Source: Escherichia coli O127:H6 str. E2348/69
Lineage (GTDB): Bacteria > Pseudomonadota > Gammaproteobacteria > Enterobacterales > Enterobacteriaceae
Direction: 5' to 3' (one strand)
DNA: 64,000 nt
Assembly: GCF_000026545.1 (NCBI RefSeq)
Contig: NC_011601.1
Below, one piece after another: positions 9,093-64,000 of this stretch. Both the position numbers and the translations under genes were made by a program. Each line of letters begins with the position of its first letter. Position 1 is the first letter of the stretch. Below the pieces are notes generated by a model that was not told the DNA's origin, searched no databases, and saw only the letters and a program-made list of their open reading frames with translations.

Positions 9093-11839
<2,747 letters not shown>

Positions 11840-27187: not shown

Positions 27188-27315
27188 TTGTCGGATGCGG
27201 CGCGAGCGCCTTATCCCACCTACGGTTCGCTATCTCTTGTAGGCCTGATAAGACGCGAACAGCGTCGCATCAGGCACACTGCCAGTGTCGGATGCGGCTC
27301 GAGCGACCAATCCGA
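27188..27315. repeat. Cluster of three REP units (BIME-like) between znuB and ruvB
   Basis: GTCGGATGCGGCG...CGCCTTATCC and GTAGGCCTGATAAGACGCG...CATCAGGCA motifs in alternating orientation. Confidence 0.75.
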
Positions 27316-27316
27316 C

Positions 27317-28330
<1,014 letters not shown>

Positions 28331-28335
28331 TTACC

Positions 28336-28947
28336 TCATAACGCGGCGCGTAGGGCTTCGCGAATTAATGTTTCACTGCTGGCGTCAGGGCGAGCGATTT
28401 TGCTCACCATGCGGCTTGCTTCTTGTGGTTTATAGCCCAGCGCCACCAGCGCGGCAACCGCTTCCTGTTCAGCATCGTCGGTCGCCGGGCTGGCAGGTGA
28501 CGTGAGTACCAGGTCGGCAGCTGGCGTAAAGAGATCGCCATGCAAACCTTTAAATCGGTCTTTCATTTCAACAATCAAGCGTTCGGCGGTTTTTTTGCCA
28601 ATACCCGGCAGTTTCACCAGCGCCCCCACTTCTTCACGCTCAACGGCATTAACGAACTGCTGCGCTGACATTCCAGAGAGGATCGCCAGCGCCAACTTCG
28701 GGCCGACGCCGTTGGTTTTGATCAACTCTTTGAACAACGTGCGCTCTTGTTTATTGTTAAAACCGTACAGCAGTTGCGCGTCTTCACGCACCACAAAGTG
28801 GGTGAAAACGATCGCTTCCTGACCCGCTTCAGGGAGTTCATAAAAACAGGTCATCGGCATATGCACTTCATAGCCTACGCCGCCCACTTCAATTAACACC
28901 AGCGGGGGTTGTTTTTCAATGATGATGCCTCTGAGTCTGCCTATCAC
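28336..28947 (-). CDS. ruvA: Holliday junction DNA-binding protein RuvA
   Basis: 203-aa [18 protein letters not shown]... Confidence 0.95.
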
Positions 28948-28997
28948 ATGACGCTCCTGCGTAATGAATCAAAGATAATGCTGTATGATAAAAAAAT

Positions 28998-29017
28998 GCT
29001 GGATAGATATCCAGCGA
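28998..29017. promoter_or_regulatory. LexA operator (SOS box) of ruvAB
   Basis: gCTGGatagatatCCAGcg, a CTGG-N8-CCAG palindrome about 55 bp upstream of ruvA; the minus-strand reading is CGCTGGATATCTATCCAGCA. Confidence 0.8.
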
Positions 29018-29222
29018 AGGATGAAGAAAACTTGCAAGGCGTCCCGATGTTCTGAAAAATGACGCAGTATAATTTTTTCTACAGGTTATATTGGAAGCAA
29101 ATATTTAAATATTACATATTCAGTGAGGAAATGCGTAATAAAAATATACATTGCGCCTCCTGAAAAAAATAAATTTTTTATGCTATTACGTATATTCATA
29201 TCTATTTCAATGGAATGACAAC

Positions 29223-29825
29223 ATGAATATTAATTACCCTGCTGAATATGAAATTGGTGATATCGTCTTTACATGTATAGGTACTGCCTTATTTGGCCAA
29301 ATATCAGCTGCATCAAATTGCTGGAGTAATCACGTCGGTATCATTATAGGTCATAACGGTGAAGACTTCCTGGTTGCAGAAAGCCGGGTTCCCCTTTCAA
29401 CTATCACCACGCTATCTCGTTTTATTAAACGTTCTTCTAATCAACGCTATGCTATAAAGCGATTAGACGCCGGGCTTACAGAACAACAAAAACAACGAAT
29501 TGTTGAACAGGTTCCCTCCCAGCTACGCAAACTTTACCACACCGGTTTTAAATACGAATCTTCGCGCCAGTTCTGTTCAAAATTTGTTTTTGATATTTAT
29601 AAAGAGGCGCTATGTATTCCGATGGGTGAAATAGAGACGTTTGGAGAATTGTTAAATAGCAATCCGAATGCAAAACTCACTTTCTGGAAATTCTGGTTCT
29701 TAGGTTCTATTCCGTGGGAGCGTAAAACCGTCACACCAGCCAGTTTGTGGCATCATCCGGGTTTGGTGTTGATTCACGCGGTGGGAGTTGAAACGCCTCA
29801 GCCTGAACTGACCGAGGCGGTATAA
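29223..29825 (+). CDS. yebB: YebB, permuted papain-fold (YaeF/YiiX-like) protein of unknown function
   Basis: ORF 29151..29825; ATG at 29223 ([16 protein letters not shown]...) gives 200 aa; AT-rich gene sitting between ruvA and ruvC. Confidence 0.8.
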
Positions 29826-29826
29826 C

Positions 29827-30348
29827 TTAACGCAGTCGCCCTCTCGCCAGGTTCAGTCGCGATTCGCTCATTTGCATCGCATTCTGACTAACGTGGCAGT
29901 GGGTGATGGCAATCGCCAGCGCATCGGCGGCATCCGCCTGTGGATTAGCGGGCAGTTTCAGCAAGGTGCGGACCATATGCTGCACCTGGCTTTTTTCGGC
30001 ACTACCAATACCTACCACTGTTTGCTTTACCTGACGTGCCGCATATTCAAATACCGGCAATTCCTGATTCACCGCCGCCACAATCGCCACGCCGCGCGCC
30101 TGCCCCAGTTTCAGGGCTGAGTCAGCGTTCTTCGCCATAAAGACCTGTTCAATGGCGAAATAATCAGGCTGGAATTGGGTGATGATTTCCGTCACGCCCG
30201 CATAGATGAGCTTCAGACGAGACGGTAAATCATCCACTTTGGTGCGTATGCATCCGCTACCCAGGTAGGACAGTTGCCTGCCTACCTGGCGGATGACGCC
30301 ATAGCCGGTCACGCGCGAACCCGGGTCAATGCCGAGAATAATAGCCAT
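29827..30348 (-). CDS. ruvC: Holliday junction resolvase RuvC
   Basis: 173-aa RNase-H-fold ORF ([18 protein letters not shown]...). Confidence 0.95.
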
Positions 30349-51484: not shown

Positions 51485-51711
51485 TCAGGATACCACTGGC
51501 GCAATTTGTAACTGCGCCGACTCATGTCGTGCTACTTCATGTTCTTCAAGGGTAAATACCGCCACACGCGACGAAAGATGGTCGGCCTGATTCAGTCGTT
51601 GCAAATCGTCGCGAAATGCCCAAAAGACATGCCGTTACTGCCAATCTGCAAGATCCCGCAGAGAATCAAAGTTAAAAACAGCGTGGTCGAAATTCGAATA
51701 CGATTAAACAT
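51485..51711 (-). pseudogene. tap: tap remnant: MCP 5' end (about 30 codons) joined to MCP 3' end (about 33 codons); central ~1.4 kb absent
   Basis: ATG at 51711 opens MFNRIRISTTLFLTLILCGILQIGSNGMSF, paralleling the Tar N-terminus in this window, and stops after 39 codons at 51592; a second frame runs ...AFRDDLQRLNQADHLSSRVAVFTLEEHEVARHESAQLQIAPVVS to a stop at 51485, 18 bp before cheR. Confidence 0.7.
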
Positions 51712-60138: not shown

Positions 60139-62889
<2,751 letters not shown>

Positions 62890-62908
62890 CTGTCTCTTGA
62901 TCAGATCT
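62890..62908. repeat. Terminal inverted repeat of an IS50-family element (matches the IS50 inside-end 19-mer)
   Basis: CTGTCTCTTGATCAGATCT begins exactly where the araH frame is interrupted; the transposase stop codon (TGA on the minus strand) lies inside it. Confidence 0.8.
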
Positions 62909-64000
62909 CCTGATCAAGAGACTTCATCACCAGGTAACCCTCAACCATATCCTGAAGTCTGAACCAGCCATCCCACATGACTACCCAACCGGGGCGACCG
63001 GTGCGTTTGCTGTCATGCCATCGCCCCAGTTTCGCCAGTTTCAGACAGGCCCATTTCAGTGTCGGCATCTGTGACGGAAGCGGTTTTCCTTCCAGCTTAA
63101 CCCACAGCAGTTTCCACTCTGTCGGCGTCAGTATTTTCTCACAGCTGTCATTTTGTGTTTCTTCACTGATACCGCCCTGCCGCAGGCCCAGCACCCGCAC
63201 CGCGATAAACGCCTTGATAACCACCATGCGCTCGAGGTTATCCCGGGTCTGCATTCGCAGCGATTCCACACATGTACCACCACTTTTCCACGCCTTGTGG
63301 TATTCCTCTATCAGCCAGCGTCGCTCGTAATGGCTGACGATACGTCGCGCATCGGCGGCACTCGCCACTTTTTCTGACGTCAGCAGATGCCAGCAGGCGC
63401 CGTCCTCTGCCTGCTCCCGGCAACAGACATACGTGAGCGGGAGCGCCTGGCCGCTGTTGTCGGGATTTTTTATGCTGACTTCGCTGTAACTGATGAACAT
63501 CCGGGCCTGGCGGGCTGCCCGCCCGCCTTTTTGCATCACATTCAGCGTGTGGCTTCCCGCGGTTGCCAGGACTTCCGGCAGTTCGAAGAGCTTGCCGGGT
63601 GCTTCTTCCAGCCGGCGATTCTGTGCTGCACGCACCACGAAGCGCTGCCCGTGGCTGACTTTATAATGCAGGTAATGCCAGATATCCGCTTCCCGGTCAC
63701 AGACAGTGATTACCCGTTTCTGTATCTCCCCCAGCCGTTCGGCCATGCGCTCCGAAGCCTGCTGCCAGCGGTAACTTTCTTTTTCTTCATAGGGACGTTC
63801 TTTTCGCTGGTGCTTAACACCGTAGGTGTCCGTGGCACGACTCCAGCGCTGCTGTTCGATAAGACCGACTGGCAGGGCGCTGTCGGGGGCGTACATCAGG
63901 ACAGAGTGAGCCAGCAGCCCGCGCGTCTTCGGGTTAGTGGTGGTATTCCCCAGGTCATCAGATGCCGTACTGTGACTGAAGTTAATGGTGGTGGTGTCTT
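62901..64000 (-). CDS. IS4-family DDE transposase (Tn5/IS50 Tnp homologue), C-terminal ~365 codons; N-terminus lies beyond the window
   Basis: Frame is open from the window edge (DTTTINFSHS...TRGLLAHSVLMYAPD...) to the stop at 62901; VITVCDREADIW and RWLIEEYHKAWKSG align with the D188 and Y-R-E-K catalytic motifs of Tn5 Tnp, and DSKRTGRPGW with its C-terminal region. Confidence 0.85.
   Translation of the reverse strand, partial: DTTTINFSHSTASDDLGNTTTNPKTRGLLAHSVLMYAPDSALPVGLIEQQRWSRATDTYGVKHQRKERPYEEKESYRWQQASERMAERLGEIQKRVITVCDREADIWHYLHYKVSHGQRFVVRAAQNRRLEEAPGKLFELPEVLATAGSHTLNVMQKGGRAARQARMFISYSEVSIKNPDNSGQALPLTYVCCREQAEDGACWHLLTSEKVASAADARRIVSHYERRWLIEEYHKAWKSGGTCVESLRMQTRDNLERMVVIKAFIAVRVLGLRQGGISEETQNDSCEKILTPTEWKLLWVKLEGKPLPSQMPTLKWACLKLAKLGRWHDSKRTGRPGWVVMWDGWFRLQDMVEGYLVMKSLDQEI

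Follow-up and report, generated by a model that had tools for sequence, protein, structure and literature searches.

Among the circularly permuted NlpC/P60 papain-like proteins, structures have been solved for YiiX (PDB 2IF6) and for the cytoplasmic Bacillus cereus protein BcPPNE (PDB 3KW0). YiiX was co-crystallised with a fatty acid, which lies in its S1 tunnel, and BcPPNE with lysine; the S1 pocket is hydrophobic in both (PMC3142127). The LRAT and H-RAS-like suppressor (PLAAT) enzymes and the T6SS toxins Tox-Act1 and TseH likewise possess a circularly permuted NlpC/P60 core and use a Cys acyl-enzyme on lipids, as phospholipase A1/2 or as acyltransferase. Phospholipids are cleaved by the permuted toxin Tox-Act1 in vitro, and an assay with liposomes revealed phospholipase activity of TseH (PMC12994826). 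Regarding the genomic setting, ruvCAB is an ancestral contiguous operon that is split in Escherichia coli and its relatives, with ruvAB but not ruvC under SOS regulation; in Vibrio, unrelated gene(s) are inserted between ruvC and ruvA, and SOS control again acts on ruvAB only (PMC3323433). Where E. coli genes converge, bidirectional terminators are widespread, and hundreds of genes are under their control (bioRxiv 10.1101/2022.10.23.513370).

The yebB locus resembles each of these systems in part. YebB shares with YiiX the fold, the permuted order His, Glu, Tyr, Cys and the Tyr-Cys spacing, but the two proteins are only 24-26% identical. YebB has about 5 residues ahead of the conserved GD motif and no hydrophobic leader. 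BcPPNE has the permuted NlpC/P60 architecture and a Cys/His/Glu triad in common with YebB, but the identity is 16%, the TM score 0.60, and the S1 and S1' loops are built differently. LRAT/PLAAT, Tox-Act1 and TseH form clades separate from YebB within the permuted group, none of them was matched to YebB by sequence or fold search, and yebB has no toxin/immunity or secretion context at this locus. Whereas the Vibrio ruvCAB insertions hold other genes, the cargo in E. coli is yebB plus yobI and varies among Enterobacteriaceae. Terminators shared by E. coli convergent pairs (Adams et al. 2021; Ju et al. 2019 via bioRxiv 10.1101/2022.10.23.513370) consist of a junction hairpin and a mapped 3' end antisense to the partner, as at yebB-ruvC; here, however, only the ruvC-side 3' end is documented, and the hairpin lies wholly in the yebB frame instead of being intergenic.

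We propose, with a probability of about 0.8, that the locus combines a known YebB enzyme, an islet that splits ruvCAB, and an ordinary convergent gene pair in which the ruvC terminator is embedded in yebB. The gene, its family assignment, the solved structure of a paralogue and the ruvCAB split are all previously on record; as a discovery the locus therefore matters little, its components having already been described.

Locus, protein family and active site

The DNA analysed is a stretch of 64 kb, hereafter the window, which matches the chromosome of E. coli E2348/69 at 100%. In the annotation of this strain, yebB bears the RefSeq name 'YebB family permuted papain-like enzyme', and it is a known, already annotated core gene of E. 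coli. The K-12 counterpart (b1862, UniProt YEBB_ECOLI) is the same gene, with 96.5% DNA identity and an identical position and 1-nt junction with ruvC; the proteins differ by six amino acids. The features of the locus are collected in Table 1.

Table 1. Features of the ruvA-yebB-ruvC region (window coordinates).
Feature	Position	Strand	Basis or detail
ruvA CDS, left border of the putative islet	28336..28947	-	annotation
AT-rich divergent control region, ruvA-yebB	28948..29222		31.6% GC
ruvAB promoter	-35 at 29013, -10 ending 28985	-	promoter scan
LexA (SOS) box CTGGATAGATATCCAG	29000..29015		sequence; overlaps ruvAB promoter
yobI, 21-codon small stress-response protein gene	29086..29151	-	21% GC; RefSeq, E2348/69 and K-12
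Predicted yebB sigma-70 promoter, CTGAAA-17-TATTAC	29160..29189	+	listed for the yobI/yebB spacer in an RpoD genomic SELEX study (PMC3946193); located in sequence
yebB CDS	29223..29825	+	200 aa + stop; ATG 29223, TAA 29823-29825; ORF and RefSeq annotation
His37 codon, predicted catalytic histidine	29331..29333	+	precedes Cys (permuted order); aligns with YiiX catalytic His
Glu53 codon	29379..29381	+	invariant or at least 90% conserved; equivalent to BcPPNE Glu64 (PMC3142127)
Tyr105 codon, NlpC/P60 signature tyrosine (oxyanion/P1 carbonyl contact)	29535..29537	+	alignments; PMC3142127
Cys motif, residues 113-126	29559..29600	+	contains invariant Cys118
Cys118 codon	29574-29576	+	Cys at N-terminus of helix 118-130
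Rho-dependent termination peak antisense to yebB	29714..29714	-	equivalent of K-12 1946742
Short U-tract (UUUC) and equivalent of ruvC mRNA 3' end	29789..29793	-	K-12 1946817 = window 29789
ruvC intrinsic-terminator hairpin, 10-bp stem, 6-nt loop	29794..29819	-	encoded within yebB codons 191-199
ruvC CDS, Holliday-junction resolvase, convergent with yebB	29827..30348	-	stop TAA 29827-29829
Candidate yebB terminator (hypothetical), 8-bp hairpin + U6	29964..29996	+	antisense within ruvC; consensus scan, fold z = -2.4

From a Cys-containing motif, the preliminary description had suspected a permuted papain-like fold, and profile and structure comparisons bear this out. YebB matches Pfam PF05708 (Peptidase_C92) with 155.6 bits (cutoff 27, E = 1.6e-45) over profile positions 3-165 of 166, and the YebB equivalog NCBIfam NF008547 with 400.2 bits (cutoff 227). 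It reaches only 77.8 bits against the YiiX equivalog NF007458, below the cutoff of 216, and is thus a paralogue of YiiX rather than YiiX itself. The sequence also matches that of PDB 2IF6 (E = 2.7e-17). The AlphaFold model of YebB (pLDDT 94.5; 62 in the C-terminal tail) retrieved with Foldseek the folds of YiiX (2IF6; E = 3.8e-17, TM 0.82/0.90) and BcPPNE (3KW0; E = 1e-6) and nothing further at E <= 0.001; identities in the paralogue alignments of this search were 16-26%.

The motif itself holds Cys118, the predicted catalytic cysteine of the permuted NlpC/P60 fold. Residues H37, E53, Y105 and C118 align with the catalytic residues of YiiX, are invariant in 13 orthologues and reach a conservation of 90% or more among 105 family members; Tyr105 precedes Cys118 by 13 residues, like Tyr115 and Cys128 in YiiX. 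YebB has no leader peptide, signal peptide or lipobox, whereas many relatives have signal peptides or lipoboxes, and Pfam NLPC_P60 (PF00877) found no match in it. In its permuted order, its missing leader and its lack of a profile match, YebB differs from canonical NlpC/P60 proteins.

Base composition and origin of the ruvA-ruvC gap

Among the window's annotated genes with a length of 300 nt or more (n = 56), yebB stands out in its composition. Its GC content is 42.3% against a gene mean of 51.4 +/- 2.7% (z = -3.4), and GC3 (37.3%, z = -2.9) and GC1 (49.3%, z = -2.7) are also low, all three values being the lowest of the set; GC2 is normal. Codons are shifted toward A/T-ending and rare ones: CTG occurs twice against 8.3 expected and ATA five times against 0.9, rare codons make up 7.5% against 3.7 +/- 2.0%, and the length-matched codon-usage distance has a z of 2.2. 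AT-richness is restricted to codons 1-185 (40.9% GC), the final 15 codons having 62%. With the spacer toward ruvA at 31.6% GC, the statement that yebB and its upstream region are more AT-rich than their neighbours holds. The small gene yobI in this upstream region was absent from the preliminary description.

Comparison across Enterobacterales points to an old event. The GC content of yebB is below that of its flanks in all 15 loci with ruv context, and its composition is atypical in every Enterobacteriaceae orthologue at the ruv position. In Morganellaceae and Budviciaceae the orthologue is located elsewhere, away from the ruv genes in Proteus, Providencia and Budvicia, and the Morganellaceae gene matches its low-GC surroundings. 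The spacers of the ruvA-ruvC gap hold different orphan genes in different genera, and an alternative islet occurs even within E. coli, in 20 genomes. It is related to the Escherichia variant E1V33, in which the identity of YebB is ~85%, as against 99-100% for the flanking proteins, and whose YebB allele groups with that of Pseudocitrobacter vendiensis. The region thus shows atypical composition, an insertion in a conserved synteny block, and a content that varies between lineages.

On this basis, yebB and yobI would belong to a small AT-rich, content-variable islet that probably split the ancestral ruvCAB operon between ruvC and ruvA when it inserted in a forebear of the Enterobacteriaceae (ancestral order taken from PMC3323433 and PMC2231364). 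From then on, ruvAB would have had an SOS promoter to itself, and ruvC would have formed the end of a yebC-ruvC unit. The earlier suggestion of an anciently acquired gene agrees with the atypical composition of all ruv-context Enterobacteriaceae orthologues and with the derived, split arrangement in E. coli (PMC3323433). The ruvA-ruvC gap behaves like a small hotspot for AT-rich orphan genes in Enterobacteriaceae. A defence or phage origin was considered and dropped, as neither YebB nor the orphan islet genes had a PADLOC or PHROG match. The low GC content of yebB lasts in all Enterobacteriaceae, unlike the prediction of simple amelioration.

Alternatively, yebB may not be foreign. In broad outline the YebB gene tree reflects the families Budviciaceae, Morganellaceae and Enterobacteriaceae, so the gene may be a long-standing one of the Enterobacterales that has only changed its place there instead of being imported. 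Its AT-richness would then stem from low expression, relaxed selection on codons, amino-acid composition or H-NS-type silencing selection. The identity of ~70% to the Proteus and Providencia proteins fits the range of vertical descent; no integrase or tRNA is annotated at the islet, and its flanks carry only weak short repeats and no direct repeats. The normal GC2 and a low GC content in all genera, with no amelioration, also agree with relocation. On the other hand, yebB ranks last of 56 genes in GC1 as well as in GC3, and the whole gap, unrelated orphan genes included, is AT-rich and differs from genus to genus and even among E. coli genomes. The divergence of the E1V33 allele beside nearly identical flanks, together with its affiliation to P. 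vendiensis, and the fit of the Morganellaceae gene to its low-GC surroundings likewise speak against it. We regard a native but relocated yebB as rather unlikely.

The ruvC terminator and the junction with yebB

The genes yebB and ruvC lie tail to tail. Their stop codons are separated by a single C at 29826, as had been described, but the conclusion drawn from it, that no room is left for terminators, does not hold. An intrinsic-terminator hairpin of ruvC, whose stem starts 8 nt past the ruvC stop (RNA fold z = -2.4), is encoded in the 3' codons of yebB. In an alignment of 13 Enterobacteriaceae, 97.7% of cells are paired, four pairs show compensatory changes, and 0 of 500 shuffles were as good. 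The tract that follows, UUUC(A/C), is below the consensus-scan threshold of 5 T in 8. Term-seq data, which are from K-12 rather than E2348/69 and were transferred to window coordinates, place a ruvC 3' end at K-12 position 1946817 (-), classified as 'primary ruvC, antisense yebB' (Adams et al. 2021, supplement 1), with 26,039 reads in LB at OD 0.4, the only one of three growth conditions for which it is listed. This end coincides with the hairpin, 4-5 nt past the stem and 38 nt downstream of the ruvC CDS. About 75 nt further, a Rho-dependent stop antisense to yebB (score 7.8, p = 1.2e-29; downstream reads rising from 44 to 358 when bicyclomycin is present; Adams et al. 2021, supplement 2) halts read-through from ruvC.

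Transcripts of ruvC would thus end 38 nt within yebB, with Rho soon stopping those that continue. The proposed overlap of convergent transcripts is correct insofar as ruvC mRNA enters yebB by this distance and Rho-terminated read-through reaches further. Since the terminator lies opposite the last ten or so yebB codons, the GC-rich, disordered and poorly conserved C-terminal tail of YebB would essentially be read across it, a clear case of a coding sequence and an opposite-strand RNA structure constraining each other.

For yebB itself, a hairpin with a U-tract ~140 nt beyond its stop, within ruvC, was kept only as a candidate terminator: it is conserved as RuvC coding sequence, and its stem loses a pair outside Escherichia. 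The K-12 Term-seq tables list only the - strand end at the junction and no + strand 3' end for yebB, neither there nor at the candidate. An Rfam scan yielded sub-threshold REP-like (naRNA4) matches between znuB and ruvB and one chance match only.

The convergent overlap could be a regulatory device that links RuvC resolvase levels with yebB, by collision of RNA polymerases, by transcriptional interference, or by RNase III acting on the 36-38-nt complementary mRNA ends. The entry of ruvC mRNA into yebB under restraint by Rho would suit such a device, as would the folding of the junction hairpin on the + strand too, and collision-driven bidirectional termination is documented for convergent pairs of E. 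coli (bioRxiv 10.1101/2022.10.23.513370). A gap of between -4 and +2 nt in Escherichia, Salmonella, Citrobacter, Klebsiella, Pseudocitrobacter, Kluyvera georgiana and Enterobacter also speaks for it. Across Enterobacteriaceae, however, the gap ranges from -4 to ~1,100 nt: elsewhere in the family it measures 25, 121, 964 or 1,098 nt, with whole genes inserted, and in Proteus, Providencia and Budvicia the orthologue lies away from the ruv genes altogether. Nor is the junction exceptional in the window, where the nine convergent pairs are spaced by -4, 0, 1, 6, 52, 55, 131, 146 and 164 nt; with 4 of 9 pairs at 6 nt or less, the 1-nt spacing is no tighter than chance would give. Read on the + strand, the hairpin lacks a trailing U-tract, and the Term-seq tables have no yebB 3' end there. 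A regulatory device is thus improbable; yebB-ruvC is an ordinary convergent pair, and a specific coupling is unsupported and need not be invoked.

Predicted activity of YebB

We picture YebB as a YaeF/YiiX-family member of the circularly permuted NlpC/P60 papain-like proteins that carries no leader and probably resides in the cytoplasm. Judged by its relatives, it is most likely a cytoplasmic Cys-His-Glu acyl hydrolase or transferase with lipid-type substrates. Cys118 would form an acyl-thioester, from which the fatty-acyl group would be hydrolysed or transferred, and the enzyme would probably attack amide or ester bonds in lipids, lipo-amino acids or acylated peptides rather than in peptidoglycan. 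Two conserved aromatic helices, residues 22-31 and 152-158, may form a hydrophobic S1 pocket or bind lipid, but this is only suggestive.

In Salmonella and Citrobacter, a paralogue occupies the fourth position in an RTX/type I secretion gene cluster. This gene hints at a role of YebB-type enzymes as fatty-acyl-lysine amidases or transferases acting on proteins. Like a functional collision or antisense module at the ruvC junction, this is a long shot. If the module were real, one conserved hairpin would serve both genes, the levels of RuvC and YebB would depend on each other through the ~38-nt complementary mRNA ends, and an acquired lipid-type hydrolase would be wired to the Holliday-junction resolvase. 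The gene neighbourhood reveals no operon partner for yebB, since its contexts differ among Proteus, Providencia and Enterobacteriaceae.

Membership of the NlpC/P60 superfamily and the retained Cys, His and Tyr residues might suggest that YebB is a peptidoglycan peptidase or amidase like the canonical enzymes. However, its catalytic order is permuted, its fold matches YiiX and BcPPNE only, and PF00877 does not recognise it; the lack of a signal peptide and lipobox implies no access to the periplasm, and permuted members bind fatty acid, have hydrophobic S1 pockets and act on lipids. Activity on peptidoglycan is therefore highly improbable. Literature searches returned no biochemical or genetic test of YebB (mentions of 'yebB' were incidental and 'b1862' gave nothing relevant).

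Conservation of yebB

The gene is found in 5,425 of 5,426 complete E. coli genomes and is intact in ~99% of E. coli genomes. In comparison with K-12, its dN/dS is 0.11, and across 13 genera 87 alignment columns of the orthologues are invariant, the catalytic tetrad among them; yebB is under purifying selection. We give virtually no credence to the view that yebB is a functionless, decaying remnant, to which its AT-richness, many rare codons and lack of a known phenotype, an IS1 disruption in one isolate and a partial copy in one metagenome-assembled genome might point, as this conservation already contradicts it. An abnormally fast divergence of yebB between E2348/69 and K-12 was also rejected, the dS of ruvC being similar (0.147 against 0.119). 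The E2348/69 allele of a 1-kb segment with yebB is rare, recurring at an identity of at least 99% in only 3 of 5,426 genomes.

The ruvC terminator lies within yebB

The preliminary description placed the yebB and ruvC stop codons one base apart, which the sequence bears out (the base is C, 29826), and held that this leaves no room for terminators, which is wrong: ruvC has a terminator, placed within the adjoining yebB reading frame. On the ruvC-sense strand a GC-rich hairpin of 10 bp runs from 29819 down to 29794, starting 8 nt past the ruvC stop and followed by UUUC. When 13 Enterobacteriaceae are aligned, 97.7% of the hairpin cells pair, with compensatory double changes at four pairs; 0 of 500 shuffles matched this conservation, and no slid register was as good. 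The Term-seq 3′ end mapped in K-12 at 1946817 (-), "primary ruvC, antisense yebB" (Adams et al., eLife 2021), transfers to window position 29789, just past the U-tract and 38 nt within yebB. The same study reports a Rho-dependent termination region peaking at K-12 1946742 (-), which by coordinate transfer is 29714; bicyclomycin raises the reads downstream of it from 44 to 358 (p = 1e-29).

The hairpin spans yebB codons 191-199. The C-terminal tail of YebB is GC-rich, varies among genera, is missing in the shorter Morganellaceae proteins and has low confidence in the model (block mean pLDDT 62); it looks like translation carried across the ruvC terminator up to the first stop. The candidate terminator of yebB itself (Table) shows no conservation beyond that of the RuvC coding sequence, and the published Term-seq tables contain no 3′ end mapped there.

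Coupling of yebB and ruvC through the convergent junction, as proposed earlier, is unsupported. Some interaction is possible, as the ruvC 3′ UTR runs antisense to the last part of yebB, and collision-type termination is documented for other convergent E. coli pairs (bioRxiv 10.1101/2022.10.23.513370). However, the yebB-ruvC spacing is 25, 121, 964 or 1,098 nt in some Enterobacteriaceae, orthologues beyond this family are not linked to ruv genes, ruvC read-in is held down by two layers of termination, and equally tight junctions are common nearby in the window, all of which argues against a selected regulatory link. The nine convergent pairs of the window are spaced by -4, 0, 1, 6, 52, 55, 131, 146 and 164 nt; the 1-nt gap is real, yet unremarkable. 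We class yebW/pphA (5286/5287, 0 nt apart), exoX/ptrB (9752-9755, 4-nt overlap) and uspC/otsA (60132/60139, 6 nt apart) as convergent pairs as tight as yebB/ruvC or tighter.

Layout and composition of the locus

The yebB locus is ordinary and already annotated (Table; gene order from RefSeq). Over 1 kb (28900-29900) the sequence matches the E2348/69 chromosome NZ_CP059840.2 at 100% identity, and this segment has a match in 5,425 of 5,426 complete E. coli genomes (95-99% identity in nearly all), with a query coverage of at least 80% in 5,391 of them. Only 3 of the 5,426 reach 99% identity or more to E2348/69 across the segment.

Features of the yebB locus (window positions) and of loci compared with it (L-numbers)
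Feature	Position	Strand	Remark
znuB		+	RefSeq
ruvB	27317-28327	-	RefSeq
ruvA	28336-28947	-	RefSeq
LexA box CTGGATAGATATCCAG	29000-29015		overlaps ruvAB promoter
yobI	29086-29151	-	21 codons, RefSeq
Predicted sigma-70 promoter of yebB, CTGAAA-17-TATTAC	29160-29189		genomic SELEX (PMC3946193)
yebB	29223-29825	+	RefSeq
ruvC	29827-30348	-	RefSeq
Candidate yebB terminator, hairpin + U6	29964-29996		inside ruvC
yebC, nudB, aspS	after ruvC	all -	RefSeq
Alternative ruvA-yebB islet	L045 3835-5600; L090 1968-3639; L013 5084-5908		
RTX-linked YebB paralogue loci	L092 1-4579; L093-L095; L037 181-6555; L031 4577-6552		

Among the 56 annotated window genes of at least 300 nt (mean GC 51.4%, s.d. 2.7), yebB is the lowest in GC (42.3%, z = -3.4), with GC3 of 37.3% (z = -2.9), GC1 of 49.3% (z = -2.7) and an ordinary GC2; the spacer upstream has 31.6% GC. 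Synonymous codons lean to A/T-ending and rare ones (CTG 2 observed versus 8.3 expected, ATA 5 versus 0.9, CTA 3 versus 0.5), rare codons amount to 7.5% versus 3.7 ± 2.0%, and the length-matched codon-usage distance has z = 2.2. With both GC and synonymous codons shifted, the AT-richness first noticed from the sequence is real. It is limited to codons 1-185 (40.9% GC), the final 15 codons having 62% GC. As to divergence from K-12, dS of ruvC (0.147) is as high as that of yebB (0.119); ruvA has 0.049.

The spacer formerly taken as the yebB upstream region contains yobI ('stress response small protein', 21% GC), which is swapped for other genes in some lineages. Owing to the shared LexA box, one computational network study predicts yebB as a LexA target (PMC2689187). 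An inverted repeat of 22 nt with 77% complementarity (arms 29111-29132 in yobI and 29233-29254 in the first yebB codons) is weak and probably due to chance. Elsewhere in the window, the znuB-ruvB gap carries REP-like palindromic elements (27161-27317; Rfam naRNA4 sub-threshold, 51 bits versus a gathering score of 59.5), araH is shortened by an ISEc13 (IS4-like) insertion (about 62500-64000), and the tap position in the tar-cheR gap (about 51560-51711) has kept no more than a frameshifted remnant of a Tar-like ligand-binding gene.

YebB is a permuted papain-like protein

YebB scores 155.6 bits (cutoff 27) against Pfam PF05708, "Permuted papain-like amidase enzyme, YaeF/YiiX, C92 family", and 400 bits (cutoff 227) against the NCBIfam equivalog "YebB family permuted papain-like enzyme"; with the YiiX equivalog it stays under the cutoff. 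Sequence search finds a single solved relative, YiiX (PDB 2IF6, E = 2.7e-17), and the AlphaFold model (105 relatives as input, mean pLDDT 94.5) significantly matches only 2IF6 (TM 0.82/0.90) and B. cereus 3KW0 in the PDB. His37, Glu53, Tyr105 and Cys118, which do not vary among 13 orthologues (13 genera) and are conserved to at least 90% across the wider family, are the counterparts of the catalytic residues of YiiX and BcPPNE (PMC3142127). The fold had been guessed from a 14-residue motif, rightly, since this motif includes Cys118, and family and model matches agree; the databases already state the assignment, which was known beforehand. With a dN/dS of 0.11 versus K-12, yebB is subject to purifying selection. 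Unlike the many family members that have a signal peptide or lipoprotein box, YebB lacks an N-terminal leader, and it is therefore probably cytoplasmic.

Origin and variability of the islet

With one genome scanned per species, YebB relatives turned up at 80 loci, with the order ruvA-yebB-ruvC only in Enterobacteriaceae (Escherichia, Salmonella, Citrobacter, Klebsiella, Kluyvera, Pseudocitrobacter, Superficieibacter and an Enterobacter). At every such locus yebB is lower in GC than its flanks (Pseudocitrobacter, 0.41-0.42 versus 0.55). Orthologues of 65-74% identity lie away from ruv in Proteus, Providencia, Budvicia, Pragia and Leminorella, where the context is genus-dependent and most fit the local, mostly low, GC. 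Contiguous ruvCAB is described as the ancestral operon, split in E. coli and relatives (PMC3323433), and Yersinia pestis is given with ruvCAB (PMC2231364). The suggestion that yebB was anciently acquired is fair for its position; a neighbour-joining tree of YebB (drawn without support values) groups by family, and relocation of an old Enterobacterales gene is therefore inseparable from import. The acquisition reading is right but not new.

The ruvA-yebB gap holds differing orphan AT-rich genes in E. albertii, Salmonella, Citrobacter, Kluyvera and Superficieibacter, and genes are inserted in the yebB-ruvC gap of two species. Among the 5,426 complete E. coli genomes, 20 carry an alternative ruvA-yebB islet of two hypothetical genes that match nothing in Pfam, PADLOC or PHROG, and so does Escherichia sp. 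E1V33; Pseudocitrobacter vendiensis shares one of the two genes. No mobility signatures are left around yebB by annotation, PADLOC/PHROG or flanking repeats. At the E1V33 locus identity drops to about 85% for YebB against 99-100% for the proteins on either side, a contrast that suggests exchange of a yebB allele between genera.

A proposed acyl-directed activity

By analogy with its relatives, the best-supported reading is that Cys118 would take up an acyl group as an acyl-thioester and that YebB would then hydrolyse or transfer the fatty-acyl group. YiiX holds a fatty acid in a narrow hydrophobic S1 tunnel, and BcPPNE was found with bound lysine (Xu et al., PMC3142127). LRAT/PLAAT are permuted NlpC/P60 enzymes working on acyl chains; the T6SS permuted NlpC/P60 toxin Tox-Act1 cleaves phospholipids in vitro, and TseH shows phospholipase activity in a liposome assay (PMC12994826). 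A literature search found no experiment on YebB, and among the neighbours of yebB orthologues no gene is conserved as a clue to the substrate.

In S. enterica, a YebB paralogue (64-68% identity) is encoded 39 nt 3′ of an RTX (HemolysinCabind) protein gene in the same orientation, in a cluster co-oriented with genes for a type I secretion ABC transporter and a membrane-fusion protein; two Citrobacter genomes have a similar arrangement. This linkage may hint that the YebB enzyme family has a protein-acyl substrate. Superficieibacter electus has a GDSL-family lipase/acylhydrolase gene between yebB and ruvC (L012 6563-7444, +), a second lipid-type enzyme within the same islet.

Among DH10B mutants with a long lag phase, one carries a transposon insertion in yebB, for which polar effects on ruvC/ruvA are possible (PMC5996734). 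The E. coli isolate AB66 (L002 1681-2617) has an IS1A element in place of the yobI stretch and the 5′ portion of yebB, of which a C-terminal pseudogene survives; at least this one clinical isolate can therefore do without yebB.
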